Below, in pieces: positions 4,895 to 56,057 of a DNA stretch of 64,000 nucleotides; position 1 is the stretch's first letter, and each line of letters begins with the position of its first letter. Source of the DNA: Rhynchopus sp. YZ270_cl-10 (lineage: Eukaryota); the NCBI GenBank assembly GCA_964035575.1, contig OZ037836.1, positions 930,001 through 994,000 on the forward strand. The letters are read 5' to 3'. The notes under the pieces are model-generated. The model saw only the letters and a program-made list of their open reading frames with translations, was not told the origin of the DNA and made no database searches. The translations under genes were made by a program, and so were the position numbers.

Positions 4895-5160
4895 CCGGTG
4901 GTACGGGTTGCAGGGGCGGTGCGGGTGCAAACGTTGGAAGACGGATGAATCGAGATGTCTGTGGACGTGACGCAGGACATAGTGTGAACCATGCTGCAGA
5001 AGTGGACGGGAAGGGGTGTTCGTACACCACCTCTGCCAGGCGACGTAGTACAGGGACATGCGTGTGGAACGCAGAGCTGCTGGCACGGCTGGATCTGGCG
5101 GAGGAAAACCTGTCGGACAGCGTGCAGACTCGCCGTAGGGTAAGGTGGGTACTACATATA
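4895..5160 (+). mobile_element. Degenerate relic of LINE ORF1
   Basis: Encodes EMSVDVTQDIV and LARLDLAEENLSDSV, matching EMSVDVTEDMV and LARLDLAEENLEDSV in ORF1 at 47398-50283. Confidence 0.75.
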
Positions 5161-13694: not shown

Positions 13695-13777
13695 GACATC
13701 AGTGCGGCTCTTTGGGGTTGGGACAAAATTGGTTCGACTTTCAGTGGGCGGCCTCGTTTTTTCGGTTTGGGGTTCAA
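12824..13777 (-). CDS. Tyrosine recombinase
   Basis: Catalytic R..K..HxxR..H..Y pattern: GAARASD, TTKSD, HSLRRG, SRHKT, LLRY; first ATG at about 13699. Confidence 0.92.
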   Translation of the reverse strand: MNPKPKKRGRPLKVEPILSQPQRAALMSCVKDTLKKSLSRDRWQNLSYLFRRFLEFKQKWEACTGNPLEMDLAIVLWVERLREMDCIANSSALQYSYDIVSALQRMAYHKMAFSMLLEDYRGALKRLGALKPKQQAVPACPEEVEETLRQTPSPVLKLAISMCWLGAARASDVLRLRAEEVVTREDGVTSVNWVTTKSDPFRIGQQTGLNIEHSSFLTLKKLLKTAKRSRDTLIFKDVTFQHINTALKKVNPTLTPHSLRRGACYQLLKEGMPLEEIQKVSRHKTIEGLLRYLPAAGIRRVADTASLSQALRIKLDD

Positions 13778-13852
13778 AAGGTTTGGAAAGAGTGTGTGTA
13801 GGGGGGAAAAAACAGAAAGAGGGGTGGTTTGAGTTGACTCGAGGGGGTGGAG

Positions 13853-14917
13853 TCAGTTCCCCCCCTTTCCCGCCTTATCGTTCTTGGACCCCTCACGGTT
13901 TGCATCACGGTTGTATTCGCGGTTTGTGTCTCTCTGGCGGTCCCGGTCTTCTCTGTATCCACCCCTGTCTCGCGAGTCCCATCCTTTCCCCTTTTTGCCT
14001 CCGGAAGACTTAGAGGCGCGGTGGGCATCGTCGCGGGTCTTCCTCTTTTTGTCGAAAGCTTCTTTCCCCTTTGCCTTCATTTCTTCGAGGAGTCGCTTCA
14101 TGATGTGTGGTTCAAATTTTTCGACCTTTTGCGCTTTCGCCTTCACCTCGTACTCGAATCTCACTTCCTTTCCGTAGACTCCCAGGTGAATGAGAGAAGT
14201 GAGCTCCACAACGGTGGTATGGAGAAGATTAATAGTGGGTGGATGAGAGGTCTTGTCATCAGTCAGTGTGTCTATCGTCAAGAGTAGGCTGTCGATTTTC
14301 CGTGCTCGATCGATCTCGTAATCTGGGGCATCACTTAACTCTGCAGGTATCGTCGCCGTTTTAAAATGGGCGCGTACCGCATCCTTTACCAGCAGTCTCA
14401 TCTTCTTATCCTCCAACTTTGTCCATGTGCACACCACGTCAGCTGCAAAGTTTAAAGGGAGGGTTAGGTCGATTCGTTGTTCCAGAGCGTCTATCCTGGC
14501 TGACATCTCGTCCAGCTTGTTCATGATTGCTTGGAAAGAGTGTTGCGAGGTGGTGTCTGTGTCTGTAACGGCGTTGTTTCCTGCGTTGGTCTCCTCCTCG
14601 GACGATGCGTCGTCAGGGTCAATTTCCTGTGTGGGTGGGGTGGGGGTGACGTGTTTCCTCCAACAACACTCCGGGCATCGGAATGTGTCGGCGGTGAAGT
14701 TATCTAGCACCACCTGCCTGATATGTGCCGGAACGCACTTCTTCAGGCAGGTCACCGACGACGCCTTCCCACAATCTCTGCATCGTGCCCCCGCATGTTG
14801 CTGCGTGCAGGTGCCAAAGCTGCATCCTGGGGCATCGTCTGCGCGGGGATCGTCCGCCTCCACCGACAAAGGGATCGCGTCCCAGTCCACCGAGTCAATG
14901 CCGGGGTAGTCGGACAT
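13853..14917 (-). CDS. Gag-like ORF1 with a Cys/His zinc-finger region and coiled coil
   Basis: First ORF of the element; CSFGTC..H...CRDC...C...C...CPEC; basic RG-rich tail. Confidence 0.75.
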   Translation of the reverse strand: MSDYPGIDSVDWDAIPLSVEADDPRADDAPGCSFGTCTQQHAGARCRDCGKASSVTCLKKCVPAHIRQVVLDNFTADTFRCPECCWRKHVTPTPPTQEIDPDDASSEEETNAGNNAVTDTDTTSQHSFQAIMNKLDEMSARIDALEQRIDLTLPLNFAADVVCTWTKLEDKKMRLLVKDAVRAHFKTATIPAELSDAPDYEIDRARKIDSLLLTIDTLTDDKTSHPPTINLLHTTVVELTSLIHLGVYGKEVRFEYEVKAKAQKVEKFEPHIMKRLLEEMKAKGKEAFDKKRKTRDDAHRASKSSGGKKGKGWDSRDRGGYREDRDRQRDTNREYNRDANREGSKNDKAGKGGN

Positions 14918-14965
14918 TTGGATTAGGGTTTTTTTTTTTTTTTTTTTTTAGATAGGATTCGTTCT

Positions 14966-17772: not shown

Positions 17773-17887
17773 CACGACGGACTAGTTATGACCATGACAG
17801 GTGATTTTACTAGTAAAATGACAGGTGAAAATTTTTGACAGGTGGTACCTGTCATTTTGACAGGTACCACCTGTCAAAATACAGGCA

Positions 17888-18080
17888 CCAGGTACCCAGG
17901 TGCCCAGGTACCCAGGTACCCAGGTACCCAGGTACCCAGGTACCCAGGTACCCAGGTACCCAGGTACCCAGGTACCCAGGTACCCAGGTACCCAGGTACC
18001 CAGGTACCCAGGTACCCAGGTACCCAGGTACCCAGGTACCCAGGTACCCAGGTACCCAGGTACCCAGGTACCCAGGTACC
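17888..18080. repeat. (CCAGGTAC)n 8-bp tandem array in the left subterminal region
   Basis: Near-perfect array. Confidence 0.95.
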
Positions 18081-19388
18081 CCCAATGACATAACGAAGTA
18101 TCGCTTGAAAGTACCGTTCAATAACCTTTCTTGGGTGTGCATGAAGTAGCACACAAGGTATATCAAACGGTAAATCAATCAGATAAACGTTACATCATCG
18201 GAAAATTGTTGGCACCGCCCCCCTGTCTTCGTATTTATTACGTCGACAGGCCAAACAGCGTTGGGCTCAGAAGAAGCAGTGCAAAACACTGGGGATCAAC
18301 ATGAGAACCAACTCCCAACAACACAGGCTACCAAAGTAGCAGGTGGGGTGTTGCGGGTGTTTGGGGTGAAAGAAAATCGATTTTGGTAAGTTCCAGCAGA
18401 AAATTCTTAAGTTTGCACTAGTCGAGAGAGGCTTACCCGCTGCAGTGAAGCAGTGCACCCATTTAAGGATGGAGAAGCGTGACACGCACATACAAGTATG
18501 TACGTTACTTCAACAAAGGCTGAATTCTGGTAATTCTAAGGGATGTGAATTCAGCCACCACGCAGGTAGTGTTTTAAGGTTCCTCGCTTTGTTCTGCACA
18601 GCGGCCTTATGATACAAAGGAGTTGCCCCCGCTCTCTTTCGCGCAAACTTAAGAAAATTCTGAAGTAACTACAACCTGGCGTGCGGGTACAGATGCATTG
18701 CTTTGTTCTTTCCTCAAAGTCATGTGTGATCTCTCGGGTCTGTACTAAAGTCAGTGTTTAGATAAGCATCCACTTGACTCGTTCTAACAACCGTTGAAAT
18801 CTAGAACAAAACAACACACTGCCCCTTCTCACACCAAGCCGCCATGCTTCAAGAGCATGCCCTGGGCAAAAATTACTGTGACAAAAACTGGTTTCTGGGG
18901 GAACGCAATATTTTCTTGTGTCTAGTCCTCCGCAAGCAGAGGACAGACTTTCCGGATCCCGAAGTCGAATTTCTTGCACTAGCTATGCTCCCTGGGTTAA
19001 TGGCTATAGCAGTGACTGACAAGAGTTTCCCACCCCCAGATGAAGAAAGAACCGACGCAGAGTTGTGGCTTCTTCATAGTTTTTTCTGCATTTTATAAGT
19101 TCATCCTGTGAGGGAGGGTGTTTTTGGAGGTGTGATGGGAAGAGGAAAAGAAAAAGCAAGAAGAAGAGATATTACTTTTTTGGTGTCGCTACTAGTAAAT
19201 GACAGGTGTAAAGTATGACAGGTGGAAACCTGCCATGTCACAGGAAATGCTGTGTGTGTGTGTGTAACAAAATGAACGACCTCACCGACCCGCATAAAAT
19301 AAAACTTATAAGAACAAAACCCAAGAAACAAACAAAAAAAAAAAAAAAAAGAGAGAAAACAAACAAGAGCAAACACTCTCAAAAGAAA

Positions 19389-19690
19389 TGCTCGAGACTC
19401 GTTCCTCTTTGCTTGTTGCTCAAAAGACTATTAACGGGGGGGGGGGGGGGAAAGTAAAGATTGTTTGTTGTTCGCTTCCACACCACTTCTGCACTCAGAT
19501 TCAAGTCTTTTGGCTGTCCTTACAAGCGCCTGCCAAAACGCTCGCCTCGTGGGTGTGGACTTTTTTCTTTTTCTTTTTCCCTTTTTTTTCTTCGACTTGA
19601 TTTACGGTATGGTTGTGTTTGACTGAAGTACAGAAAGTGTCGTGGAGCACAGGGAAGAAAAGAGAGAGAGGGAAAACCGGGGAGCGGGAG
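19389..19690 (-). mobile_element. Solo terminal fragment of the YR retrotransposon (SIRE-like)
   Basis: Matches 10534-~10815 (repeat B, spacer, part of A) with some divergence. Confidence 0.85.
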
Positions 19691-19720
19691 AGGGGAAAAC
19701 CCGCAAACCTTAGATTTAAA

Positions 19721-21547
19721 TTAACTATGAGCAGATTTCATGTGCGAGTCTCTTGCTCTAGCATTTGAGAAACGTGTTGCGCACAACGGGCAGGTTTTTT
19801 TATCCAAATTCTCAGCGTGCGCATGCAACAGGTGTTGGCTTAGCCCCGCAGTTTCCCTCAAACAAAACGGGCACTTCATGATAGGTGCACGATGTTTGCC
19901 ATCGTAATGGGCAAATAATCCAACTGAAGATTCGAATCCGGTGTTGCAGATAATGCAAGTATGGTCACCATTTTCATCATCTTTTTTTTTATCCTCGCAC
20001 ACATTTTCGACATTTTCGTCATCACTGTTGACTCCAGGCTCCTCATTGCACACACAAATGAGTAAAGTTTCCCCAGCTTTATCTTTTTTATCCCATACGT
20101 ATTTTTGCCCCTCCGCCCCTTTGTTGCAAGTATGCCGCTTCATACCCAGGTTTTTGACACGAGTTCTCAAACTAGTGAAGGCGTCTGTCCAGACAGCGTC
20201 TTTCTCGGTGATGCAGGTATGAAAATGAAAAGTGTTATAGTTATATAATACAGGCAATTTTTTTCTGTCGACTGGGCCAAGTTCAGGCAGGTCGCGTTTG
20301 CAATTTTGCTCAACCAAATGCTTCTTGCTCAGTTCAAATGCCAGCAAGTCACGTTCCATGGTCTGGACAGATGTACACACAGTCCATCTCTTGCGTTCCC
20401 CATTGCACTGTTCGAAAGCCTCATCTGAGAGACATATCCGATGTGCATCCTCCACGTCAAACCAGTGCTCAAGGCTATGAGCGTATGACGACCTGGTGAC
20501 GCCTGCTTTGAAAAATTCAAGCAAAAATATGAGGGTATGGTATGAGAGGAGGGCGTAAAGGAAGTCCTTCTCGTAGGGGTTATCTGTGCCTTCGTGGTAG
20601 TGATACCTGACAGGTATGTCTTGGTACCGGAAAAAAATGAGCACCTGCATACAGCTGCACATTATTTCCCGCATGCCAACCGTTTCACGTTCAAGCATGG
20701 TGAGGAGGGTACGTGATTGAGACCCCGTCATGTTCCCATCAGAAGAACCAGTGACTGTTTCTTGTGTGCTTCCTGCGTTGGGGATGGTCTTTATCATCAG
20801 GTTCACCATGCCTTTGCAATCGTGCAACGCAGGGGTTAAGGCATAGCACGGATGCTCAAATCGGTGCGAAATGTAACTGGTGAAGCCGAGCTCATCCATG
20901 CGCTGCAGGCTACACCTCTCACACCGATGAAGCTTCTTCAGTCTGTCATCGATATCAATGGGGCAGAAAGCAGTTCGATGTTTTCCTCCTAAACCCTTAC
21001 ACAGTCTCAGCAACTCTGCATGATCACCTCCAAACCTGAAATGAAGGATAGGGATGCGCAACTTCTTAACGTAGCACCCACGCGACTGTATGGACTTCAA
21101 AGCAACGAGGCCGCAGAACAACCACCACTCGTAAAAGTCGCTTTTGGTTTTGTCCGCGACAGTCAGGAATCTACTCGCCTGAAGCCCACTGGCTAATCCC
21201 ACGGCAGCACGTTGACGACCACTTGCACTTCTGAATGCACTTCGAGGCGTGTATGCGTCAGCAGATAATACGAGGATAGCTGGTGGGGAGTTCACGGTGA
21301 AGGGGAACTTTGCAGTCAGAAAGCACACAGCCTTCTCGATGTTACCAATTAAGCTCGTTGCCTTCTCCTTAAACGGCTCCTCGCGTATCCTCAGCGTCTC
21401 TCTGGATAGACCTACCCTCAAGGATGTGTGCTTGCGGATGAGTGAGCCAATTCGTGACACTGTGGTCATTGATAGGCCCAATTCGAAGCGATATCTGGCG
21501 ATGATATCCGCAATTTTCAGGGCTGTGCCAAGGTGAAGTTCACTCAT
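19721..21547 (-). CDS. Putative DDE transposase (CMC/Transib/RAG1-like core) with three C-terminal C2H2 zinc fingers, 608 aa
   Basis: Lies within TIRs; motifs LSADAY (D97), FGGDHA (D175), PALHDCKG, MTGSQSRTLL, SYAHSLEH, DEAFEQCNG (E379); C2H2 fingers CIIC..H..H, CPFC..H..H, CPLC..H..H. Confidence 0.75.
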   Translation of the reverse strand: MSELHLGTALKIADIIARYRFELGLSMTTVSRIGSLIRKHTSLRVGLSRETLRIREEPFKEKATSLIGNIEKAVCFLTAKFPFTVNSPPAILVLSADAYTPRSAFRSASGRQRAAVGLASGLQASRFLTVADKTKSDFYEWWLFCGLVALKSIQSRGCYVKKLRIPILHFRFGGDHAELLRLCKGLGGKHRTAFCPIDIDDRLKKLHRCERCSLQRMDELGFTSYISHRFEHPCYALTPALHDCKGMVNLMIKTIPNAGSTQETVTGSSDGNMTGSQSRTLLTMLERETVGMREIMCSCMQVLIFFRYQDIPVRYHYHEGTDNPYEKDFLYALLSYHTLIFLLEFFKAGVTRSSYAHSLEHWFDVEDAHRICLSDEAFEQCNGERKRWTVCTSVQTMERDLLAFELSKKHLVEQNCKRDLPELGPVDRKKLPVLYNYNTFHFHTCITEKDAVWTDAFTSLRTRVKNLGMKRHTCNKGAEGQKYVWDKKDKAGETLLICVCNEEPGVNSDDENVENVCEDKKKDDENGDHTCIICNTGFESSVGLFAHYDGKHRAPIMKCPFCLRETAGLSQHLLHAHAENLDKKTCPLCATRFSNARARDSHMKSAHS

Positions 21548-21618
21548 AGTGTGTTTGCAGTTGTGATGTTTCTCTGTGTGATGAATTTATGTCGAGGGAG
21601 GGGTGACCCACTAAACTT

Positions 21619-22652
21619 CATCACAGCTGCAATCACACTATGAGTGAACTTCATCACGGCACAGCCCATATCATCGCCAGATATCGCTTCGAATTGGCTC
21701 ACTCATCCGCAAGCACACATCCTTGAGGGTAGGTCTATCCAGAGAGACGCTGAGGATACGCGAGGAGCCGTTTAAGGAGAAGGCAACGAGCTTAATTGGT
21801 AACATCGAGAAGGCTGTGTGCTTTCTGACTGCAAAGTTCCCCTTCACCGTGAACTCCCCACCAGCTATCCTCGTATTATCTGCTGACGCATACACGCCTC
21901 GAAGTGCATTCAGAAGTGCAAGTGGTCGTCAACGTGCTGAGGGTTAGATTCCTGACTGTCGCGGACAAAACCAAAAGCGACTTTTACGAGTGGTGGTTGT
22001 TCTGCGGCCTCGTTGCTTTGAAGTCCATACAGTCGCGTGGGTGCTACGTTAAGAAGTTGCGCATCCCTATCCTTCATTTCAGGTTTGGAGGTGATCATGC
22101 AGAGTTGCTGAGACTGTGTAAGGGTTTAGGAGGAAAACATCGAACTGCTTTCTGCCCCATTGATATCGATGACAGACTTAACTTCATGATAAAGACCATT
22201 CCCAACGTAGGAAATTTTCGCGCGGAGCGCAAAAAAAAAAAAATTTTCTTTGGAGAAGGCTCGGTTTTCCATTATTGTTACAAAGTGTAGTGATTTAGGA
22301 TCTTTTTTTTCAGGAAAATTCAAAGGATAAACCACTTTTCCGGTGACCCCCCTCCCCCTCCTATACCAAAAAAAGTTTTCCTCCCCGGATTTCGATCGGA
22401 CCCCCCTCCCCCCCTTTTATTGTTATTTTGTAACAATAAATGGAAAAACGAGCCTTCCCTTGCCCTCGGTAACCCCGTAAGCCAAAACCCCGAAACCTGG
22501 AAAAAGGCCTGGAACGGATAAAAAGATTCAAAAATGACGAAGCAATACAATGAAGAGCCTAGAGTCAACAGTGATGACGACGAAAGTATGCGACGCTGAG
22601 AGCAAGAATAATAAAAAGAAGAGACTCTCGCATGAAATCTGACAAGTTTAAT
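21619..22652 (+). pseudogene. Inverted, internally deleted copy of the transposase gene
   Basis: 21619-22212 mirrors 20771-21568 with deletions; 22549-22652 mirrors pieces of 19721-20047; an unrelated insert lies between them. Confidence 0.9.
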
Positions 22653-23034
22653 ACAAACAGCGTGTAAAAAAAAAGAGGGGTGGGACTCTATTTTTTTTCT
22701 TGGGTGAACAATTGGAGGAAGAATTGCGAGGCAATAATATGCAACTTTTATAAAGTAACGCTACAAGTATGTCTGGTTTTTGTGCGCACCCCAATAATGA
22801 AGTGTAACAAAATAAATTTTTTTTTTGTAGTTTCGACAATCACCTGTCCGAGAACGGGTTCTGTACACAATGTTTTATATATATATTTTTTTTGTAGCTA
22901 CCTGCAAAAAAAAAAAAGAAGATGAACCTGAGCCTCTCGGGCTTAACCACCTCGAAATAAAGTGTAAAATGGTGTAAAAAAAAAAAAAAAAGAAAAAAAA
23001 AAAGTTAAAAAGATGACCCTAAGCCCGTACTTAT

Positions 23035-24048
23035 TTAAGTACTTACTTCTGAGAAAGTTCCCGACTTGTCGTCACTCTCCTCGTCATCGTCATCGTCATG
23101 GTCAATGGTATGGTTACTAACCGCTTGAGAAACCATGACATCCTCACTGACTTCTCCAACTTCGCTGCCTTCATCTGCAGAGTCATGGCGGAGGTCATCT
23201 GGAACCTCAGACTCCCATGAGCCACCTCCAACATTTACCTTGGCGGTGGCCACTGCACTGGCGAGAGGAATGTAGACCATGGTATTTCCACCCTTCTCTA
23301 TTACGACTTCTTTACTGAAGTCAATCACGTACGTGTCGGGAACACGATACTTGAAATCGTAAACACCAGGTGTGAAGTTGGTGCTGGGCAATGTTCTTTT
23401 GAACGACATGGTGAAGTCGCTGCCCGAGAGTTTTGCAGAGTCAGGGACGAGCTTCGTGCACCCGCTCTCCACCATGAGCCAGAGACACTTCACTCCATTG
23501 TGCGTAACCCCGCCTTTGTTTGTGCATTCTGGCCAGCTTCTCGTAATCTTTTTAGCTGGTGTCACTGAGGAGGTCTGTAGTTTGGCCTGGTACAACGTGA
23601 GAACTTTCGCCTCATCGAGGTTGCATTTCTGTGCCAAGTTCTTCAGGCTCTTGTACTCCGCCGAATTGCTCTGTCCATTGGTGGGCGTTTGGCGCAGGGT
23701 GAAGCCGCAGAATTCGAGGTCGCTGTTCCCACTCGCTCGGCGGGAATAGTACGTCATGCTGCCGGCGTCTACTGCATTTTTGGCAGTCTTAATTTTGTGA
23801 AGTAAGTTCATCTCAATGCTAATTAAGCCGCTCTCTGATTTCAGATTTATCCCGAAAAGATTGTTCAACATCGCCTTCAACGGCGCATGAAGGAATGATT
23901 TGCCCTCTTTTTTCATCACATATATCTTGAGGAAGTTCTGCACCACATCCCTCACCTTAGATTCCACAGCCGGTTTGGGTTTGGGTTTGTCATCTACGAC
24001 CTTCGATCTTTTGGTAGGCAGGGGCTGTGTCGCTGAGCGTTTTCCCAT
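23035..24048 (-). CDS. Transposon accessory protein of unknown function (basic N-terminus, acidic tail), 337 aa
   Basis: Clean ORF inside the TIRs; NLS-like PTKRSK; weak by-eye resemblance of the C-terminal half to an alpha-crystallin/HSP20 fold. Confidence 0.7.
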   Translation of the reverse strand: MGKRSATQPLPTKRSKVVDDKPKPKPAVESKVRDVVQNFLKIYVMKKEGKSFLHAPLKAMLNNLFGINLKSESGLISIEMNLLHKIKTAKNAVDAGSMTYYSRRASGNSDLEFCGFTLRQTPTNGQSNSAEYKSLKNLAQKCNLDEAKVLTLYQAKLQTSSVTPAKKITRSWPECTNKGGVTHNGVKCLWLMVESGCTKLVPDSAKLSGSDFTMSFKRTLPSTNFTPGVYDFKYRVPDTYVIDFSKEVVIEKGGNTMVYIPLASAVATAKVNVGGGSWESEVPDDLRHDSADEGSEVGEVSEDVMVSQAVSNHTIDHDDDDDEESDDKSGTFSEVST

Positions 24049-24138
24049 TTTTTATATTGTTTTTGTTGGTTAATTCCTGAATTGAGTGTCAGGGGGCGGG
24101 AGGGTAGCTTGAACCATGCACATTAATTAATAATTATA

Positions 24139-25113
24139 ATGCAACCTCGTTCAACCACCCCCCTGACACCCAATTCAGGAACCAACAAAAGCAATATAAA
24201 CTGCCTACCAAAAAAGCGAAGCCCGATGATGCCACAAACCAGCTACTGTGGAATCTAAGGTGACGGATGTGGTGCAGAACTTCCTCAAGATATATGTGGT
24301 GAAAAAAGAGGGTAAAGCATTCCTTCATGCGCCGTTGAAGGCGATGTTGAACAATCTTTTCGGGATAAAGAGAGCGGCTTAATTAACGTTGAGATGAACG
24401 CACAAAATTCACAAAATTAAGACTGCCAAAAATGCAGTAGACGCCGGCAGCATGACGTACTATTCCCGCCGAGCGAGTGGGAACAGCGACCTCGAATTCT
24501 GCGGCTTCACCCGCCCACCAATGGACAGAGCAATTCGGCGGAGTACAAGAGCCTGAAGAACTTGGCAGCAGAGAAATGCAACCTCGATGAGGCGAAAGTT
24601 CTCACGTTGTACCAGGCCAAACTACAGACCTCCTCAGTGACACCAGCTAAAAAGATTACGAGAAGCTGGCCAGAATGCACAAACAAAGGCGAGGTTACGC
24701 ACAATGGAGTGAATCCTGACTCTGCAAAACTCTCGGGCAGCGACTTCACCATGTCGTTCAAAAGAACATTGCCCAGCACCAACTTCACACCTGGTGTTTA
24801 CGATTTCAAGTATCGTGTTCCCGACACGTACGTGATTGACTTCAGTAAAGAAGTCGTAATAGAGAAGGGTGGAAATACCATGGTCTACATTCCTCTCGCC
24901 AGTGCAGTGGCCACCGCCAAGGTAAATGTTGGAGGTGGCTCATGGGAGTCTGAGGTTCCAGATGACCTCCGCCATGACTCTGCAGATGAAGGCAGCGAAG
25001 TTGGAGAAGTCAGTGAGGATGTCATGGTTTCTCAAGCGGTTAGTAACCATACCATTGACCATGACGATGACGATGACGAGGAGAGTGACGACAAGTCGGG
25101 AACTTTATCAGAA
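24139..25113 (+). pseudogene. Inverted copy of the accessory gene, lacking its ATG and carrying small deletions
   Basis: Reverse complement of 23048-24120; 3' half essentially identical. Confidence 0.92.
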
Positions 25114-26176
25114 CCAGAGGCCATGACTTTGGTATTTTTACCCCTTTCTCTCCCCCCCCCCCCCCCCCCCCTCCCAGTACCTGTTAGACACACTTGTAGT
25201 GTTATTTTGTAAAAGTTGTTGTGGTTGCATATAATTATTAATTAATGCCAAAAGATCGGGTGGAGGGGTGGGGGTGAGATGACAGCTAAAAGATCGGGTG
25301 GGGGTCGGTGAGGTCGTTCATTTTTGTTACACACACACACACACACACAGCATTTTATGTGACATGACAGGTGCCACCTTCACGGTGACTACCTCGACGA
25401 CGCACACGCTCCACAACGAGGTCAAACCCGAAAAAGAGAACCTTAGGGCACAGCCAGTACACCTTTCCCTAAGTGTGTAGCATGCAGAACATACATGGGC
25501 TGACATCAAAACCAAAAAAAGAAGCAAATAAAAAACAACATTTTTTGTTTATCTCTCTGCAAGAATTTTTCCCACGGCTATTTGTGTGTACCATCAAAAG
25601 TGCTCGTAAGTGCCTTCATTTCCATTTTTCCCCCAGGATTGAGGACATGTGGGCAATTTGTGATGTCGAAAAAAAAAGTTTTGGTCAAAAAATGGACTTG
25701 TCTTTCGGAAAAAATCGGCTGCGCAAAACCGTGTTTTAGACCCCCACAGATGCTCAAAACTGCCAAATTTTGCTTTTAATGGCCTCAAATCGTCGAAATT
25801 CGCCCTAAAAGGGGGCAAAAAAAAAAATTCGAGAGTCCCTTTCCCTGGGAGGCAATAGCCACCGGCAAAAACACCTGTCATATGACAGGTGGTACCTGTC
25901 AAAATGACAGGTACCACCTGTCAAAATGACAGGTACCACCTGTCATATGACAGGTACCACCTGTCAAAATGACAGGTGGTACCTGTCATCTTACAGGTAC
26001 CACCTGTCATATGACAGGTGGTACTTGTCACCACCTGTCATTTTACAGGTGGTACCTGTCATTTTACAGGTACCACCTGTCATATTACTAGTAATATTCA
26101 ATTATCACCTGTCATATTTATAACTAGTTACACCACCTGTCATATCACCTGTCATGGCCATAACTAGTCCGTCGTG

Positions 26177-42622: not shown

Positions 42623-45600
42623 TTATCGCGGGGCAAACCCGAGACGCCCCTGGGACGTGTCGTGGTGCCTTTTCCCGCAACAGGCCTGAGGAGACGCCAG
42701 CATCGGCAATCCGTCCTTCTTCCTCTTCCGTCCCGCCTGCACACATGCACCGCAAGCACCCCTCCCGTGGGCCACACAGTTGTGGTGCTTCTGACAGCAC
42801 TGCTTCATCGACACGTTCCCCGCACCCGCACACTGTCCGCACATCGAGAAGTTATGCACCTCACACGCCTCACGCGCCTCCACACAGTCACCCAAAATAA
42901 GCTCATCACAATGGTGCGTCGCACAACACGCCGTGATGGAGATGTTGTTGTGCTCGCAGTCCCCGCATCGCATCTTGGTGTGTATGTCACACACCCGCAT
43001 GGCCCCCACCTTCCTCCTTACGTCCACACGCACAGCCGGTGTCTGCAGCCTGCGTGCTTCCTGTCGTCGATTCTGCTCTGCCGCAACTGCAGCTAGCGCA
43101 GCTCTCCTACGCACCTCCTCTGCCTGCTTCTGCTCTTCCTTCACGTCCTTCCAGCGTTCGTTCTTTGCTGAGCGTTCTTCCGGAGTAGAAGCGTGAGCCA
43201 CATCCGCGTCGTCACCCCACCTCGCCTTCGTCTTTTCCTTTTGTCGGGAGAGTGCTCTCCGCGACGTTGCCTTCTCCTTCAACTCCTTCAGGTACCCTTC
43301 AACCCCCGCCGCATGCGTCAGCACAGGTCGCACAGTGTACCCCGTCATGATCCCCGCACCCAGTTCCTGTAAGTGGTGCACCTCCCTCTTCTCCACTCCT
43401 TTCCACACGTCCCTTCCACGCGCCATCGTTTTCGCCGTCCGCATCATGGCACCAAAAGATTCGGCCCTCTTCAACACCGTCTCACCCGGTACGTCCAACC
43501 CCGAGAAGATCTCAAAGTCCAGCATGAGCTCGAGCTGCGTGATGGGGGGCGTTGTGCCATCAGGCCAACGCAATGCAGCGAGCCATGCCTTCAGCGCCCA
43601 GAAGTGGTCTTCCGTCCAGCGAGGACTCTTCTTCATGTGTTTGCTCCCCCATAGTACGTTCTCCAGCGGGTTGTAGCTCTCAAGCACTGCACCCTCCGGA
43701 AGATTCCAGCCCCACGGAAAAAGGGACTGGCCCACCACCGCCTGCTTCTTCTTCTTCTGCGAGAACCCATGTTCCACGTCGTACTTCTGTCTTGCCAGCG
43801 CGATGTTGACCAGCATCAGTTGCACACGTCGCACCGTCTGCTCCCTCTCCGCAACACTCAGCTCCTGCAAGAATATCGTCGGCACCAGGCCAAAGTCCAA
43901 GAAGCACGGGGGTGCGTCTTTGAGCAAAACCCGGAGTTTTCCGATGTCCTCTCCACGAATTTCGTCCCACTGCGGGCACCACCACCAAGCGTGTCTCCGG
44001 TCCTCTATCGCCTCACCACAGTATCGGCACAACGAAGTCTCCACCTCCTTGTTCCTCAGCAGCTGCACCCCCACCAACTGAGAACCCGACAAGGCTCCGC
44101 GTATCACGCCCGCCAGGTATCTGTCGGTCGTGCGGTCCTTCCACACTGCGTTCGTCGCCTGGCGATCCACACCTCCCTCAATGCCCTGCATCGACGGCCT
44201 CTTCGTCACTGTCAGGCGGTACGCGTGTGCACGGATGCCCTCTCTCAGCTCATGCAGCCATTTGCCCTTGTCCCACAGACGAACGTGCACCCTCAACCCG
44301 ATGTGCGTCGTCCAGAAGTCGAAGCTGCTCCACCGCCATCCGTATCGCTCCAGGTCGTCCCACAACAACTCTATCACACCCTTCTTGTTCATTTCAGTTA
44401 CCCTTGGGTTGGCAACCCCAGGGTTCTCGCGCCGGAGACGTGCCAGATCTGAAGCCCTGTCACGCCGCCTCGCCTCCCGCTCCGCTCTTCGGTCACGTGC
44501 CAGCCTCCACACGTCTTCTGCTTCTCTCCGCATGCCGTCATCTTCTGTCAGTCGAAGAAAGGCCGCCATCCTCCTCTGCACAATCTCCGCTGGCGCATCA
44601 ATCCCGACCGGAGACAACACATGCCACACAATGTTCAGCGTGCGCTGCTTCCTGCCCTGCCCCCAGACTGCCAGTGCAGCCCCTTGCCTCAGCGTCTCTA
44701 TCGTCTGCTTCGAGAAGTCTGTCACTTCGCACCCATGCAACGCTGCCATCATTGGTCCCCTTGCGCCAATAAGTGCCTTCTCAGTGAAGGATAATGGCAC
44801 ACTCGAAACCCTCGTAAATACACGGTGCGCAGTAACCGCACGCTCACGCGCGATGGGCCCGAAGTTCCCCTTTCCTGCCAAAATGTCTGCTCCAACCGCC
44901 CCGAACTGCTTCTTGTCGGGGAAGAACCCGTCGCCAAGTCCAAACTTCGTCTTTGTTCCCTCCTTCGAGGTAAACCCTACGCACTTCTCTGCCTTGACCT
45001 CCATGTCCGCAGCATTGATAAACTCCTTCGTCACCCTCGCAGCACCATGCACTTCCGCTTCCGTGTTCGCCACAGCGTACACGTCGTCAGCGTACCCCAT
45101 GGCGATTGCTCCGGTCCTTCTCGTCACTGCAGATCCCCACACCGCCATCAGCGCGTTCAACAGCACGACAGAAAGTGGGCAACCTTGCAGGATACCATTT
45201 GTCGTACGGAAAGCGCCTCCCACACCTACGTCTCCCAACTTGAAGCGGCGTTCCATGGCAGTGTACGCCGCCCTCAGTGGTCCAAGAATGCGCCAGTGCG
45301 CGCCCCACTCCTCCGCCAGCGATAGCACAATCTCATGAGGTACACGATCGAAACATTTGGCGTAGTCAATCGTGAAACCCCATACCTGGTCTGTGTCGTC
45401 ACCCGACAGCACCGCCTTCTCCAGTTTGAGTGACAAATGCCAGTACAGGTGTGCAGTGCTGTGTCCTGCTCTGAAGCCGTGCTGTTGCTCACCAATCCAG
45501 CTTTCCTGCCACTTTATCAGCCTTCGCAACCTCGCTGCCGCCCACAGTCTGTACACACACGAAGTAATCGTGATTGGTCGCTGCTTCAGCGGAGTGTCGT

Positions 45601-47389
45601 CTTCCCCTTTGGGGATGAGCGCAATGAGCGCTCTCATCAAAGAAGGCGGCCACTCCCCCGTACACTCAATCGCATCAAACACATCTGCCAGCCTGTCGAG
45701 CAGCACCAGAGGAAGCGCCTTCAGCTCTGCCATGCGCCAACCCTCCACCCCAGCAGAAGTTTGCGTCTTCATCCTCCCCAGAGTTTGCTGCAACTCCTTC
45801 CCCGTCAGCCTGTCCATCTGCATCGCTTGCCCCTTGCCTGCGATGTCTTCTGCAAACTTCTCTCTAAACGCACCCCAGTCGGGCTCTGGCTTTTCCGCAT
45901 ATCGGCGAAGAATCGGCATCCACGCCTCATGCAGGAGGGTGTCCATCTCCTCAGCGTTGGCGGTGAATTTCCCATCCTCGTTCTTCAGGGCAGTCATCTT
46001 CCTGTACTGCTCGTCCTTGCAGTACTTGAAGATCGCCTTGGGAGCATTGTGCCATGCATCCCGTAGGCGCTGCCGCCAGTCCTCCAGTCGCTTCCGCTTC
46101 ACTCGGTCCGCAAGCGTTGACACCTTCACTCGCACGGCTCTGCACAGATCCACCAAAGCCTCCTCGCTAGGCATATCCTGTTGCAGTGAGTCGTCGTCCA
46201 GCAGAACACGCAGTTCCTTCCGCGCCTTGCTCCAACAATTGCACACGTCATGTGGCGGCACACCACCGTTGCTCCTCACGTACCACAGTCGACATTCTTC
46301 CAGCCTGCCCACGTTCTTCGTCAGTCTTCTCTGGCTCACCGTCAGAGCGTCCCCTTCCTTGCTCTGCTTCGCAGTCCGGTGCTTCGGTGTGGGGTCGAAC
46401 GTTCTGCCTCTACCGCAATACGCCTTCGTCGGGCCCTCAATCTCGCCTTCGCACGCCTGCAGCAAGAAGTCCTCTGCCCACTTGTTCCACTGGATCCACC
46501 TATCCTGAGGGTGTTGAAGCGCCCCCCACTGCAGCTCCTTGTTCGCAAACGCCTTTTGTGCCGTCTTCACACCCTGTCCACACTTCTCCAAAGGGAACTG
46601 CTTCGGCAGAGTGTACGCGAGCACGATCTGCCTGTACGCACCTACATCCAGCGCTATCTCTACCGGTCTGTGCTGCGGGAGCCCAGAGTCGTGGACAACC
46701 TTCACAGACGACAGCCCTGTGCACGCAGCTCGGTTCAGCAGAACGTAATCGAGCCTCTTGCGGATCTCCTTGCCCTCCTTCACCGAGAAGTAGGTGTTCT
46801 CCGGGGTCGTCCCAAGCACCCTTGCGTGCTCTTCGGCAGTGTCCTTCCACCATCCTGTGTCTAGCGTAGCAGCCAGCACACCTGATTTCCCGGGACCTGC
46901 GTTGAAGTCCCCACCAATCACCCCAGGAATGTCACCAAGCTCTGCAGCAGCCTCCATCACCTCGCCAAGTATTTTCTCCCTAGCCTCCGGGTCCGCCGAC
47001 GGCGCGTAGACGGAGGTCACGTCGATCCACTCGTTGCCTTTGCCGTACGCCACCTTCGCCTTCACCCATCGCGTTGAGTCCCAGAGGTTCTTTTCCAAGG
47101 TTGAGGAGGGCGGGCTCGTGAGCACAGGTATTCCCTCTTTCACCAGAATCGCAACACCACCAGATTTCGCTTCTTCGGCCGACCTCCATTCCGGCAACTC
47201 CTTACCCCACACCACCTGCCAACCCTGCTCGCGGTACTCGATGGAGAGGCGCTTCTGCGTCGTCACGGTGCACTTTGTCTCTTGTACCAGAACAACTTGA
47301 GCATCCTCCGCAACCTTCAGCAGAGAACTCCCGCCTGTCTGCAGCGCCGTCACATTGCTGCACACTATCTTTAGTGGGGCAAGGCCCAC
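42623..47389 (-). CDS. LINE ORF2: AP endonuclease + reverse transcriptase + CCHC knuckle + Cys/His-rich tail
   Basis: SNV, VQET, SVYAP, GDFNA, RLDY, QHRPV; QRPIT, DYAKCFDRV, GILQGCPLS, YADD; CRYC..H....C. Confidence 0.95.
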   Translation of the reverse strand: MGLAPLKIVCSNVTALQTGGSSLLKVAEDAQVVLVQETKCTVTTQKRLSIEYREQGWQVVWGKELPEWRSAEEAKSGGVAILVKEGIPVLTSPPSSTLEKNLWDSTRWVKAKVAYGKGNEWIDVTSVYAPSADPEAREKILGEVMEAAAELGDIPGVIGGDFNAGPGKSGVLAATLDTGWWKDTAEEHARVLGTTPENTYFSVKEGKEIRKRLDYVLLNRAACTGLSSVKVVHDSGLPQHRPVEIALDVGAYRQIVLAYTLPKQFPLEKCGQGVKTAQKAFANKELQWGALQHPQDRWIQWNKWAEDFLLQACEGEIEGPTKAYCGRGRTFDPTPKHRTAKQSKEGDALTVSQRRLTKNVGRLEECRLWYVRSNGGVPPHDVCNCWSKARKELRVLLDDDSLQQDMPSEEALVDLCRAVRVKVSTLADRVKRKRLEDWRQRLRDAWHNAPKAIFKYCKDEQYRKMTALKNEDGKFTANAEEMDTLLHEAWMPILRRYAEKPEPDWGAFREKFAEDIAGKGQAMQMDRLTGKELQQTLGRMKTQTSAGVEGWRMAELKALPLVLLDRLADVFDAIECTGEWPPSLMRALIALIPKGEDDTPLKQRPITITSCVYRLWAAARLRRLIKWQESWIGEQQHGFRAGHSTAHLYWHLSLKLEKAVLSGDDTDQVWGFTIDYAKCFDRVPHEIVLSLAEEWGAHWRILGPLRAAYTAMERRFKLGDVGVGGAFRTTNGILQGCPLSVVLLNALMAVWGSAVTRRTGAIAMGYADDVYAVANTEAEVHGAARVTKEFINAADMEVKAEKCVGFTSKEGTKTKFGLGDGFFPDKKQFGAVGADILAGKGNFGPIARERAVTAHRVFTRVSSVPLSFTEKALIGARGPMMAALHGCEVTDFSKQTIETLRQGAALAVWGQGRKQRTLNIVWHVLSPVGIDAPAEIVQRRMAAFLRLTEDDGMRREAEDVWRLARDRRAEREARRRDRASDLARLRRENPGVANPRVTEMNKKGVIELLWDDLERYGWRWSSFDFWTTHIGLRVHVRLWDKGKWLHELREGIRAHAYRLTVTKRPSMQGIEGGVDRQATNAVWKDRTTDRYLAGVIRGALSGSQLVGVQLLRNKEVETSLCRYCGEAIEDRRHAWWWCPQWDEIRGEDIGKLRVLLKDAPPCFLDFGLVPTIFLQELSVAEREQTVRRVQLMLVNIALARQKYDVEHGFSQKKKKQAVVGQSLFPWGWNLPEGAVLESYNPLENVLWGSKHMKKSPRWTEDHFWALKAWLAALRWPDGTTPPITQLELMLDFEIFSGLDVPGETVLKRAESFGAMMRTAKTMARGRDVWKGVEKREVHHLQELGAGIMTGYTVRPVLTHAAGVEGYLKELKEKATSRRALSRQKEKTKARWGDDADVAHASTPEERSAKNERWKDVKEEQKQAEEVRRRAALAAVAAEQNRRQEARRLQTPAVRVDVRRKVGAMRVCDIHTKMRCGDCEHNNISITACCATHHCDELILGDCVEAREACEVHNFSMCGQCAGAGNVSMKQCCQKHHNCVAHGRGACGACVQAGRKRKKDGLPMLASPQACCGKRHHDTSQGRLGFAPR

Positions 47390-47397
47390 GGTCGTGA

Positions 47398-50283
47398 TTA
47401 ATACGACCCTCCTTCTCGCCTCTGGTCCGTGTCGCGGGGGCGGCTGTTCTCGTCCGTCGTCGTATCCTTCTTCTCCTCACCGCCATCTGCACGACGATCT
47501 TGAGCGTTCCTGGCCTTGTCCTTGGCCTCGCGAGCTGCCTTCTTCAGCGCCTCGTTCTCCTCCGTGAGCCGCTTGCTCTCCGCTGCCAGCTGCACATTCT
47601 GCTCCTTGCACTGCTGCATCGTCTCCTTCATCTCAGCACAGTCTGCTCTGAGCTGTTCCATGCCAAGAGGCTGCGGCGGCTGCTCGACTGGTGCCGACTG
47701 CTGCGGTTGTCCCATCATCCGCTTCTGTGCCTCCAACATTTCCTTCTGCTGTTCCATGACGCCCTTCATCATCTCCCGCAATTCCTTCATTTCCTTCTTC
47801 ATCAGCTCGATCTCTTCCTGCGCTGCTGATGAAGCTGCGGGAGGTGCCGGAGCCGCCGGTGCCCCTGTTGCAGGGTGGGGCCGAGCTGCAGGTGGTGCGT
47901 ATCCCCTCGCCTTAGCCGCCCACGTGCCAGCGCCGCTCTCTGCTGCTCCTTGCCTCGGTACTGGGAACTGCGCCAGAGGGATACCCCACGGATTCGCACC
48001 CACCTTCTGCACACGACGCCCTTCCTTCACCGCACACACCGTCAACACCAATCCACCCACCTCCAGCACCCCTTCTGTGCTCGGGCACGGCACATCCGAC
48101 GTAACCGTCCACTTGTGCCCTCGCGACAGCACCTTCACCGTCCAGATCGCCTCTCTCGCCAGCCCCTCACACAACAGCTGGACCGACGTGTTCGCCGGAA
48201 TTCCCCCAATCTCGTATCTGTGTCCCTGCACGACGACGTCCTCCTGCACAAGAAGCCTCTTCGCAGCCTCCAAGTCCCCCTTCATGACACGCACCGCGTA
48301 GCCCCCTTCCCCTACGGCGAGTCCGCGCACGCTATCCTCCAGGTTCTCCTCCGCAAGGTCCAGCCGTGCCAGAGCAGACTCCAGCGGTTCCGCCTTCCAC
48401 AACAACCCACAGTCCCCGTACTCCTTTGCCTGGAAGAGGTGCCGCACAAACACCCCTTCCCGTCCGCTTCTCTTCAGCATGGCGCACACCATGTCCTCCG
48501 TCACGTCCACAGACATCTCCATCCATCCTCCTTTCTCCAAGCCGCGTCCACACCGCACCCCCTGCAACCCGTACCACCGACGCATGCGTTGCTCTCCCTT
48601 TGTGCGTCCTTCTCCCGCCCTGATGAGGGTCCGGCCCATCAGCGTAACCAGCTTGCTCGTGAACGCAGTACTCTCCTCCACCGGCTTCACCACCTTGTCC
48701 AGGTCCGACGTCATGGTGCCCAGCCAGACTTCCTCCATACGTGCGCCTCGGTCGGTCCGCACTGCCACCTTCACCTTCCTTGTACGTGTCGCACCTGTGC
48801 ACTTCGCGCGTGAGACAAGCACCACCTGGGGGAGTGTGTGCAGCAATTCCAACCCCTGCACGAGTTCACCCGACCACGCAACTGCCGCCACCTGCGTCAC
48901 CCCTTCCACAATATCAGGTACTGCCTCCCACACCGGAATTTTCCACCCTGGAGAGTCCAAGACTAAGTTCAGCGGGGCCTCCGCATCCGTGCGCACCGAT
49001 GGCGCCTTCTTCCTGCCCGTCACAGCCGTGCCCGGCACGTGCAACTGCGGTTGCCCCACTGCGCACATGATCTCCTCGCCCGCCTGCAGCCCTGCCGACG
49101 TCACTGCACCGTAGTGCACTCCTCCCTCGTACGCCAGAACGATGTCTGACTCCCGGAACGCCAGGTTCGCCTTCTCCGCTGACCCCTCCTTCAATGCCCC
49201 GTCCGTTTGCCCGTCAATCACTGTAGCCCTCAGCACATTCCCCGGCCCGACGTCCATCACCACAACACGGGTCCGCATCGCCCTCGCAATCGCGTGGAGA
49301 CACAGATGGTCCCCCCACGTCCCCAGCTGCGCCATCGCGGCCAGATACCCCTCTGCCCCCGCTTCCCCTTCGATGAATGGGCTGTAAAACGCCGCATCCT
49401 TCCTCATCACCCCCACCGCCAGCTTGCGGAACCCTGCATGCCCGTTCGGGGACGACTCCGCAGACCACGCCACTGATCGGAAGAGACAGTCCCCTTTGCC
49501 CCCGCACTCCTCCCATCTCATACCCCAACGCTCCAATAACCCCTTGATCCCTGGCTGCGTCGTCGGCGCCTGCTTCTCCGCCGTGCATCCCCTTGCGGCG
49601 TAGCTACCACCTGCCACCAGCGTCGCGCTCGACTCCGCTGCCGTCATCCCCTGTCCCGCCCTCGCACTGTGCAACACGGAGACCTGTATCCCCCTCTTCT
49701 TGAGGTTGGATACCATCGATCTCACCTTCTCCAGTCGTGGCCTGAGCAGCTGCGAGTCGCACGGTTGCCCCGCGGATACCTGCTTCCACACCTGCAGATG
49801 CGACACCCACACCCGTGCATGCACCCCTTTCTTGTAGGATCCGTCCGTGACACCTCGCAGCCCCAAGAGGATTCCTTCGTATGCCGCCTCCGCCTTCGTC
49901 ACTCCTGCCAGTCGCTTCGTCAACTCCCAGTGCGTCACCGGCTCGTCCTCCGTTGCTTCACGTGCCAGCGCACACAGCCCCGTCGCGTCCCGCACCTTCT
50001 CGCCAGGCGCGACCCCAACGAAGATGTCGGGGTCTCTCTTCTCGTCGTCGTCAGCTGCACGCTTCATGCCTCCAGCACCCGGGTACAGCAGTTGGTGCCC
50101 AATAGCCCTGTGCGCCAGCTCAGCTGCCGACGTCGTCTCCTCGCTGCACCTGCAGTTCCAGGAATCGCAACACACAGGCGCCGGCGGGTGTGGGGTCCAT
50201 TTGGCCGATCCGTGTGACGGATCGTTGCCCGGGATACTCCGCGTGGAGGCTGGACGTGACTTCGACACCATGTACGAAAACAT
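47398..50283 (-). CDS. LINE ORF1: degenerate RNase H-like domain + OTU cysteine protease + coiled coil
   Basis: TKAEAAYEGILLGL..VWVSHLQVWKQV..VLHSAR; GKGDCLFRSVA..WGDHLCL..GVHYGAV. Confidence 0.85.
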   Translation of the reverse strand: MFSYMVSKSRPASTRSIPGNDPSHGSAKWTPHPPAPVCCDSWNCRCSEETTSAAELAHRAIGHQLLYPGAGGMKRAADDDEKRDPDIFVGVAPGEKVRDATGLCALAREATEDEPVTHWELTKRLAGVTKAEAAYEGILLGLRGVTDGSYKKGVHARVWVSHLQVWKQVSAGQPCDSQLLRPRLEKVRSMVSNLKKRGIQVSVLHSARAGQGMTAAESSATLVAGGSYAARGCTAEKQAPTTQPGIKGLLERWGMRWEECGGKGDCLFRSVAWSAESSPNGHAGFRKLAVGVMRKDAAFYSPFIEGEAGAEGYLAAMAQLGTWGDHLCLHAIARAMRTRVVVMDVGPGNVLRATVIDGQTDGALKEGSAEKANLAFRESDIVLAYEGGVHYGAVTSAGLQAGEEIMCAVGQPQLHVPGTAVTGRKKAPSVRTDAEAPLNLVLDSPGWKIPVWEAVPDIVEGVTQVAAVAWSGELVQGLELLHTLPQVVLVSRAKCTGATRTRKVKVAVRTDRGARMEEVWLGTMTSDLDKVVKPVEESTAFTSKLVTLMGRTLIRAGEGRTKGEQRMRRWYGLQGVRCGRGLEKGGWMEMSVDVTEDMVCAMLKRSGREGVFVRHLFQAKEYGDCGLLWKAEPLESALARLDLAEENLEDSVRGLAVGEGGYAVRVMKGDLEAAKRLLVQEDVVVQGHRYEIGGIPANTSVQLLCEGLAREAIWTVKVLSRGHKWTVTSDVPCPSTEGVLEVGGLVLTVCAVKEGRRVQKVGANPWGIPLAQFPVPRQGAAESGAGTWAAKARGYAPPAARPHPATGAPAAPAPPAASSAAQEEIELMKKEMKELREMMKGVMEQQKEMLEAQKRMMGQPQQSAPVEQPPQPLGMEQLRADCAEMKETMQQCKEQNVQLAAESKRLTEENEALKKAAREAKDKARNAQDRRADGGEEKKDTTTDENSRPRDTDQRREGGSY

Positions 50284-50323
50284 TGTTTATATTCTTTCTT
50301 TTTGTGTACGTTGTGTGTATCCC

Positions 50324-54307: not shown

Positions 54308-54992
54308 TGGTGTGGCTGAAACCAGCAAATTTCACTGCTAAAGAACTGCTAACAAACTGCTAAATAATACCCTTTTTTTAGGGGTGGTGTATAAAAACAT
54401 TTTTTTACCTTGGTTTTTCCACTCCCCCTGTTGGCGCGCCTCCACTCTTGCATACCCATGTGTGACCCCACCGTTGAACGCAATCGACTCGCTGAGTCAA
54501 AAGAACGCACAGAACGGGGCTGGAAAAAATCACGAAAAACGCGTACCGTGCGCCTGCCGCGCCCACAAAGTGAGTTTCCCCCTGAGTATGCTGTGTATAC
54601 TGTGTATACTGTGTATACTGTGTATACTGTGTATACTGTGTATACTGTGTATACTGTGTATACTGTGTATACTGTGTATACTGTGTATACTGTGTATACT
54701 GTGTATACTGTGTATACTGTGTATACTGTGTATACTGTGTATACTGTGTTTTCTGCGGAAATTGACCAAAAACGAGAACTTGTCCATTTCGGCGAATTGA
54801 CCCCACCACTGGCCGGACGGATTCCGGAAATGCAAATGCCGGCGTTAAAAAGCTCACCAACGAAAAAAAAATTTTTTTTTCCAACACCCGTGGGGAAAAA
54901 ATTTTTTATACACCACCCCCCCAAAAATGCATGCTAACAAAGTGCTAACAAACTGCTAAATAATACCCTTTTTTTTGGGTTCAGCCACACCA
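54308..54992. mobile_element. Non-autonomous TIR element with a nested element
   Basis: TIR TGGTGTGGCTGAA; 5-bp TSD GCTGA; empty site near 52005; inner inverted repeat GGGGTGGTGTATAAAA at ~54381 and ~54904. Confidence 0.8.
54592..54748. repeat. (TATACTGTG)n microsatellite
   Basis: Perfect array. Confidence 0.97.
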
Positions 54993-55268
54993 GCTGACCA
55001 AAAATATCATGACCAAGGGTAAAAACATAGGTGGTAAAAACTAAGGTGGATCTTGGGGTAACAACTACTTTGCCTGAAGTACAGAAATAAGGTGAGTGCA
55101 CAATAAAGGAGGAGGGTGGTAAATTTGTTTCAATAACTTTCAAATCAAAGAAGAGAAAGCTCAAGGACGTCAATAGATGCATTCAAACGTTAGTGTTTTT
55201 GTTGCACAAATGTGAAACGAAAAGAGAACAATCACAACGCACACACTCTGTTGATTCTAACAACGGGG

Positions 55269-56057
55269 CAGTGTTTTTTCTGAGGGGGTTGGAGGGGGGC
55301 ACTTTACACCCCTGGGATTTTTTTGGGGAAATACCGCCCCCCTCGAGGGGGGCGGTATTTTGGATTTTATTTTTTGGATTACTGTGGGTTTAAAGATCAC
55401 CACAGGTGGTCTTTAACAACATTTTCAAACACCATGTCGCTCACTCCGACCACTGCGCCGTCCGTCTACGCCCAGGACAGGCGTTTTTGGTAGCAGTCAG
55501 CAAGTACTGCTGGCTAGAAGCCAACGCAGACGGGTACTATTGTACCCTCTGCCGCCGACACTACAACACTGGAGAGTGGGTATCAAGCCCAATGGACAAC
55601 GTGCAGTGGCTGGACGAGAAAGCAGAGCGACACCACGTCAGCGTCGCCCACAGGAGAGCAACGATCTGAGCACGTTGCTCTCCTGTGGGCGATGCTGACG
55701 TGGTGTCGCTCTGCTTTCTCGTCCAGCCTCTGCACGTGGTCCATTGGGCTTGATACCCACTCTCCAGTTTGCGGGTTTGCAATGCATGGGGCTGATGTCC
55801 CCCACCCCACTTCATCAAATCAAAAGCGCTGCCTCTACCCCCATTTTTGCTAAACGCCTGTCTTTCTTCCCTAAACAACCTTCACATACCCTCACAGAGG
55901 CTACACACACACCATGATATTCTGATGAGACCGAGTCCTCGTCGAGAAAGCTCGGAATACACCCAAAAATCCCTGAAAACCCACTTTTCTGGGGAGAAAT
56001 CTTTTTTTTTTACCGCCCCCCTCGAAATGAAAAACCCAAATCCTAGAAAAAACACTG
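55269..56057. mobile_element. Non-autonomous hAT-like element with a transposase zinc-finger fragment and an internal palindrome
   Basis: TIR CAGTGTTTTTTCT; 5-bp TSD CGGGG; empty site caacgggggtag in paralogs; encodes WLE....YCTLC....GEW.......W......H..S..H (TTF/BED-like). Confidence 0.82.

Follow-up and report, generated by a model that had tools for sequence, protein, structure and literature searches.

The main finding of this analysis is that the fold-back in the 64-kb stretch of DNA studied here (the window) is real and present in several copies. It is no one-off at an LRR gene: in a multi-copy transposon family, roughly one third to one half of the members have this form. Its inverted arm was probably made once, by snap-back (template-switch) repair, and then spread as a passenger during transposition.

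The element, its insertion site and the hairpin

The fold-back lies within a 789-bp element, the borders of which were set by comparison with four paralogous empty sites in the window, at 33116, 38757, 41657 and 52270. Contigs from three sequencing runs (X2, X3 and X4) also carry the empty form, in which the joint skips 794 bases (789 + 5) with five ambiguous letters. The features of the region are as follows.

55264-55268, no strand: left target-site duplication, CGGGG.
55269-56057, plus strand: non-autonomous DNA transposon, hAT5-like deletion derivative, 789 bp, delimited by the empty paralogous sites and the 794-base joint.
55269-55281, plus strand: left terminal inverted repeat of 13 bp, CAGTGTTTTTTCT.
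55329-55360, no strand: subterminal palindrome formed by a G/C-rich motif and its inverted copy; the motif occurs a third time at 56011-56025.
55434-55669, plus strand: zinc-finger ORF of 78 codons, likely a transposase N-terminus, TTF/C17orf113-like; the database protein P0010 maps to 55434-55666.
55568-55663, plus strand: left arm of the hairpin, the original coding strand.
55664-55672, no strand: loop, 9 nt in the window copy and about 53 nt in the form pieced together from the runs.
55673-55768, minus strand: right arm, the inverted copy; its outer junction is in contigs of X1, X3, X4 and X5.
55769-55899, plus strand: segment absent from the short family form (X5 joint from 55672 to 55900); no Pfam match.
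56045-56057, minus strand: right terminal inverted repeat, identical to the left one at 13 of 13 positions.
56058-56062, no strand: right target-site duplication, CGGGG; an X1 contig spans 55941-56159 without differences.
56134-57366, minus strand: intact host gene with a ubiquitin-like domain and BspA-type LRRs, 410 codons, one of a tandem family.

From the end of the element, 76 bases lead to the stop codon of the host gene at 56134-56136, and the stem lies 365-566 nt behind this stop codon. The terminal inverted repeats are of the CAGTG type, and the 5-bp duplication is read at a single insertion site. A duplication of 3 bp would need an invariant G before CAGTG; this reading was rejected because another base stands there in two of the five informative database copies. 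The segment 55769-55899 is possibly a remnant of the 3' end of the transposase gene, judged by eye only. The same LRR 3' region holds a second insertion, at 54308-54992, with TG...CA ends, imperfect terminal repeats of 22 bp, a 5-bp duplication GCTGA, an empty site near 52008 and an internal 9-bp tandem array.

In the window the inverted repeat consists of two arms of 96 nt each, 55568-55663 and 55673-55768, which differ at three positions (55598, 55607 and 55643 in left-arm numbering) and enclose a 9-nt loop, ATCTGAGCA, exactly as a sequence-only reading of this DNA had described its near-perfect 96-bp hairpin. That reading had also put the element in the 3' region of the LRR gene, about 77 bp from the stop codon; the placement holds, with a measured distance of 76 bases. 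Folded as RNA the hairpin reaches -250.5 kcal/mol (z -23.5), a value equalled by none of 100 shuffles, and on the minus strand, the one that corresponds to the LRR mRNA, both the MFE and the centroid structures contain the stem (z -24.6; 0 of 20 shuffles). Between 50 and 60 kb the longest exact inverted stretch measures 35 nt, whereas none above 15 nt arose in 10 shuffles of this 10-kb sequence. Taken as a bare duplex the two arms pair at -202 to -207 kcal/mol regardless of loop size, a figure computed from the arms alone; the length of the loop should therefore hardly matter for double-stranded RNA. Within the stem 25 of the 76 possible 21-mers are perfectly paired, and the arm sequence has no 14-nt match elsewhere in the 64-kb window. 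A microRNA precursor was considered and rejected, since all seven Rfam matches at E values up to 1 fall below their gathering scores, the best being mir-281 with 35 versus 70 bits.

The ORF starts with the ATG at 55434 and ends at a stop codon within the loop, giving a 78-residue peptide with a CxxC...H-x4-H pattern, and the left arm lies within this frame. Pfam finds in the zinc-finger peptides zf-C17orf113 alone, at E values of 0.01-0.075, below the cut-off. HMMER, run over 1.84 billion representative proteins, returned six matches, namely three family members, the relative P0013 and two repetitive proteins, which were dismissed as relatives. P0013 is the one true outside relative (E 5.9e-5, 47% identity) and has the same Trp, both Cys and both His as the zinc finger of the element. 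By eye only, we take its downstream part to resemble the N-terminus of ZNF862/DUF4371-type hAT transposases; Pfam gives no match for the tail peptides and leaves this resemblance unconfirmed. The structure model of the peptide is poor (pLDDT 54.5), and fold searches with this low-confidence model gave no fold match (Foldseek best E 1.5; VIA best Z 4.4, rmsd 2.4, 59 aligned). The element encodes neither an RNase H-like DDE domain nor a C-terminal dimerisation domain. The autonomous parent to which the sequence-only reading pointed was not found either, in that no longer protein with this zinc finger turned up: a word search among longer proteins matched five of nine candidates, all of 140-160 aa, a search with P0015 among longer proteins matched none of 333, and no full-length parent is among the six HMMER matches over the 1.84 billion representatives. 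Metagenome contigs gave no match to the element by protein or DNA pattern. Each failed search for the parent is weak evidence of absence.

The canonical 8-bp target duplication of hAT elements is not what the element shows, its duplication being the 5-bp CGGGG. hAT families with 5-bp target duplications are known as hAT5 (PMC12730594), and the element resembles them in its short terminal repeats (13 bp and perfect, with the duplication read at one site), its subterminal repeats and its 5-bp duplication. It may also resemble the DUF4371 hAT transposases, in which ZnF_TTF precedes the RNase H-like domain (PMC3985635), in the type of its N-terminal zinc finger. Unlike both groups, it has no catalytic or dimerisation domain, which leaves no placement by transposase phylogeny, and its zinc-finger match is sub-threshold. 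We therefore consider "hAT5-like" the best label, one of likeness rather than of proven membership, and the origin of the zinc-finger ORF from a transposase likely rather than proven. Measured against this, the earlier description as transposase coding sequence in a hAT-like element, with a left arm encoding the end of a TTF/BED-like zinc finger, survives as a zinc-finger ORF with a CxxC...H-x4-H frame in a DNA-transposon derivative with hAT5-type ends; the usual hAT duplication gave way to one of 5 bp, and both the transposase identity and the zinc-finger family rest on matches below the cut-off. The main text of the D. papillatum genome paper names TATE, MULE and Helitron and makes no mention of hAT, while the repeat section of its supplement may name it (PMC10161547). 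A hAT5-like family is thus recorded in a lineage whose genome paper names none in its main text.

Copies and forms of the family

Eleven near-identical zinc-finger ORFs among ENA-derived proteins lie on 11 contigs, all different in length (0.2-2.7 Mb), and the five representatives among them have 94-98% identity. Eight of the 11 stop where the window ORF stops, and the tails of the other three (P0005, P0007 and P0008) join a short spacer segment straight to the 3' part of the element, without the fold-back. In P0002, one of the 11, the order is changed, with 55813-55911 placed ahead of the part that starts at 55374, as in a tandem or rearranged element. Six of 11 runs were compared, as contigs. 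Five of these (X1-X5), from three studies, one of which may be the source of the window assembly, contain the element, and X8 has no contigs over it; X6, X7 and X9-X11 lay outside the comparison. There is no RNA run among the 11, a fact that bears neither way on expression.

Read from loose ends and a single joint, the family sequence beyond 55672 consists of a short tandem repeat, 15 nt of it, followed by a spacer segment of 28 nt. All family forms diverge at one internal spot, the end of this spacer segment. The segment is joined to 55767 in X2, which is the form without the fold-back, to 55900 in X3 and X5, which is the short form (the X5 record has 65 + 43 + 30 = 138 nt), and to the inverted arm in X2 and X3, where the inner junction occurs in two variants of one base each. 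As for the outer junction of this arm, contigs of X1, X3, X4 and X5 show it without other letters, and in X2 it is seen by depth. Other copies bearing the palindrome, the existence of which the sequence-only reading had left to a search, are therefore evident from fold-back junctions in contigs of five runs and three studies. The ratio of depth at the right-arm junction to depth over the left flank is 0.35, 0.53, 0.44, 0.52 and 0.43 in X1-X5 (5 of 5 runs), and minor variants on fold-back-bearing sequence make up 11-16% of depth in three runs, which means that there are several diverging copies. If minor variants are taken as single copies, there would be about 6-15 fold-back copies among 12-34 family copies, a rough estimate since summed contig depth is not copy number. 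At the family level the arms differ at two positions. The junction contigs cover 30 letters of the arm, where the bridging rule asks for 31, and none spans the arm together with both junctions; the fold-back form of the family, with a spacer of 9 + 15 + 29 = 53 nt, is accordingly pieced together from parts.

The sequence-only reading had made its case depend on raw data, and here the outcome was divided: the outer junction of the inverted arm has support in all of X1-X5 (in X2 by depth), and the tight 9-nt loop was seen in none of the five, although this does not prove its absence, as rare variants are lost from contigs and some records are removed by a filter. In X2, X3 and X5 the depth over 55684-55697 is 0, with loose ends at 55664, 55665 and 55672. 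The depth in the loop bin of X1 is wholly accounted for by a contig ending at 55672, and X4 has no loop-bridging piece among those listed. The window also lacks one T in the T run at 55483, a letter that is present in all four runs covering the site, and neither the missing T nor the short loop of the window was found in X2 or X5. From the site at 55483 and the unsupported loop, local consensus errors in the window appear likely. For the loop itself we consider an artefact of the consensus about as probable as the alternative, a later deletion of 44 nt private to the window copy. The mismatch at 55607 is a different matter. The T of the window occurs there at 1-2% of depth in X2 and X5, which rules out an assembly error; it is a real rare allele, and by this letter the window copy or a near copy may be present in X2 and X5.

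Origin of the inverted arm and possible silencing

Compared with the form without the fold-back, about 7 nt have been swapped for about 95 nt inverted from 50 nt upstream, with one or two matching bases at the start and two at the end. Insertions left by snap-back synthesis in microhomology-mediated end joining are inverted and flanked on either side by short matches (PMC5728401), and the inverted duplication of the mosquito MITE Goblin is ascribed to template switching (PMC3814204). The junctions seen here would fit snap-back synthesis or template switching in abortive gap repair, the insertion being longer than is typical. We propose a break just past the spacer segment in a parent form that lacked the fold-back. 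Through 1-2 nt of pairing about 50 nt upstream, the free end would have primed synthesis on its own strand and copied about 95 nt backwards, and the copied end would have rejoined the far side at a 2-nt match, with the replacement of about 7 nt. The new form would have kept both ends, so that transposase supplied in trans could have multiplied it to roughly 6-15 copies, one of which would have inserted 76 bp past the stop codon of the LRR gene. The element would then be transcribed by read-through of the minus-strand array, at least as precursor RNA, and some double-stranded RNA would probably be made, as a by-product and not as a selected function. The few minor variants and only two fixed arm mismatches suggest that the form arose once, recently, and was then transposed in trans. 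A close parallel is found in Ds elements and in Goblin of Aedes aegypti, where, as here, several internally deleted forms go back to one parent, with short junction matches and an inverted duplication. In Goblin, however, the inverted part is subterminal, lengthens the terminal repeat and has matches of 6-8 nt, whereas here it is internal coding sequence with matches of 1-2 nt (PMC3814204). Against the repair-scar reading, the full fold-back form is put together from pieces, the order from parent to fold-back hangs on one loose end in one run (X2, at 55767), microhomologies of 1-2 nt are weak signatures, and no autonomous partner was found in the protein searches. A share of the fold-back near one half could reflect selection, although a snap-back scar carried as a passenger needs none.

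It is extremely unlikely that the whole inverted arm is an artefact of assembly or amplification. Such a view could draw on the difference between the window and every run at 55483 and on the 9-nt loop, which has no support in the runs, but the outer junction recurs in the contigs of X1, X3, X4 and X5 and by depth in X2, across three studies, and the inner junction in X2 and X3. Random fold-back chimeras would not yield a single fixed junction at high depth, and the rare T of the window at 55607 recurs in X2 and X5. More consideration is due to a mobile "killer", in which the stem would be transcribed by read-through and cut by Dicer, and the small RNAs would silence the mRNA of a transposase with the same zinc finger, so that the family limits itself. 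The strength of the bare duplex and the perfectly paired 21-mers speak for it, as does the position of the stem, which is inside the median 3' UTR length of D. papillatum. The genome of this species contains unidirectional, probably co-transcribed gene arrays with a median 3' UTR of about 800 nt and a complete RNAi gene set, with two Dicer-like proteins, Argonautes, Piwis and an RdRP (PMC10161547). With minus-strand host genes in the window and array transcription in D. papillatum, the stem is likely to be transcribed, at least within a precursor RNA. Precedents exist in maize (PMC3440606; bioRxiv 10.1101/2020.01.07.897926). On the other side, no intact target transposase was found in the protein searches, which is weak evidence, and the RNAi genes are documented in D. 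papillatum and not in the Rhynchopus host of the element. The stem is also short compared with the duplication of roughly 1.3 kb in Mu killer (PMC3440606), and the several diverging copies indicate that transposition of the family continued once the fold-back existed, something that a strong killer would not allow. We consider this self-limitation unlikely, though worth keeping in view. An effect in cis, in which the stem in the 3' UTR would lead to cleavage, retention or altered stability of the 56134-57366 LRR transcript, is very unlikely, even though the stem folds on the mRNA strand, the element lies 76 bp behind the stop codon and euglenozoan expression is governed by 3' UTRs (PMC10161547). 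The insertion is absent from four paralogues in the window, the filled site is found, among the records listed, in one of the four runs covering it (X1, possibly the source of the window), and the unrelated insertion at 54308-54992 in the same 3' region makes the element look like tolerated accumulation. As no 14-nt match to the arm occurs in the rest of the window, small RNAs from it would miss the other LRR paralogues here and hit only one LRR transcript, in cis. Such an effect, if any, may not be adaptive.

The snap-back scar carried as a passenger thus remains our preferred reading, and a silencing role like that of Mu killer is plausible beside it. In Mu killer a deleted element contains transposase-derived sequence as an inverted duplication, and the fold-back has this structure, with its transposase origin likely rather than proven. 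As here, this maize MuDR derivative is an internally deleted DNA transposon with an inverted transposase duplication beside a host gene from which it is possibly read through (PMC3440606), and the silencers formed by composite Ac/Ds insertions have the same layout, with read-through from a host gene possible (bioRxiv 10.1101/2020.01.07.897926). These maize loci, however, are single loci with kilobase stems and demonstrated silencing, whereas the present element has a 96-bp stem, keeps both ends, is multi-copy and is known from DNA alone. The read-through hairpin model for Mu killer is itself disputed in PMC3440606. It would be a larger claim that the fold-back is a transposable silencer, that is, a Mu-killer-like structure with both ends kept, carried by about half of the family and active wherever it inserts through read-through arrays, and we regard this as quite unlikely. 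If it were true, then, given the two further fold-backs that a second, unrelated element carries within these 64 kb, snap-back repair and polycistronic read-through would routinely turn transposon debris into small-RNA memory in this lineage. Our literature search found no work on diplonemid small RNAs or siRNAs, its matches concerning trypanosome rRNA, and no description of such an element in diplonemids. From the interpretation first offered by the sequence-only reading, the inverted zinc-finger duplication, the DNA-transposon derivative and the LRR 3' region are retained, while the one-off placement is not, and no intact target in trans was found in the protein searches. Among the triggers proposed for the first recognition of a new transposon by its host, still an open question, are fold-back derivatives, for which the evidence comes mainly from maize. 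A diplonemid with a multi-copy fold-back, read-through by default and RNAi genes in the model species offers a cheap test case; should no small RNAs map to the fold-back, it would be a common repair scar of a non-autonomous element.

Other fold-backs and genes in the window

Two other fold-backs, at 20937-22181 and 23047-25113, are real in the window sequence, and both lie inside one element of 8,404 bp at 17773-26176. This element has CAC...GTG ends with 35 of 40 terminal bases matching and a 2-bp duplication GA, and it is inserted in a 250-bp tandem array. Its ends presumably recall the CACTA/Mirage/Chapaev group (PMC12730594). The two fold-backs each have their centre close to the 5' end of a minus-strand ORF, of 621 aa with C-terminal C2H2 fingers in one case and of 338 aa in the other. 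The latter has no Pfam match, and neither ORF matches a transposase family. The right arms of both lack several pieces of 8-42 nt between nearly identical blocks, and mismatches increase towards the centre. Both genes of this element are folded back. Since the two lie in one 8.4-kb element they are not two independent cases, and the sequence-only reading, which had counted the hairpin as a third, unrelated case of folded-back transposase sequence, has to be revised to two fold-back elements in the window, the ORFs of the larger one having no transposase match.

All identified host genes in the window are on the minus strand. Between 1500 and 57366 there are two tandem families of intronless minus-strand genes encoding a ubiquitin-like domain and BspA-type LRRs in variable repeat number, and in an empty paralogue the stop codon lies about 1.27 kb from the next start. 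The 3' part of a phosphatidylethanolamine N-methyltransferase gene occupies 63140-64000; its best relatives are all diplonemid, from Rhynchopus (70%), Diplonema, Flectonema and Namystynia, and judging from this neighbouring gene the host is a diplonemid. Two retroelements were also observed. A tyrosine-recombinase retroelement at 11022-14947 has overlapping reverse transcriptase and phage-integrase-family ORFs and a third ORF. A non-LTR retrotransposon at 42623-50286 encodes an endonuclease and a reverse transcriptase, with a 962-aa frame containing an OTU protease domain ahead of them, and a fragment of it is found inverted at 4896-5152.
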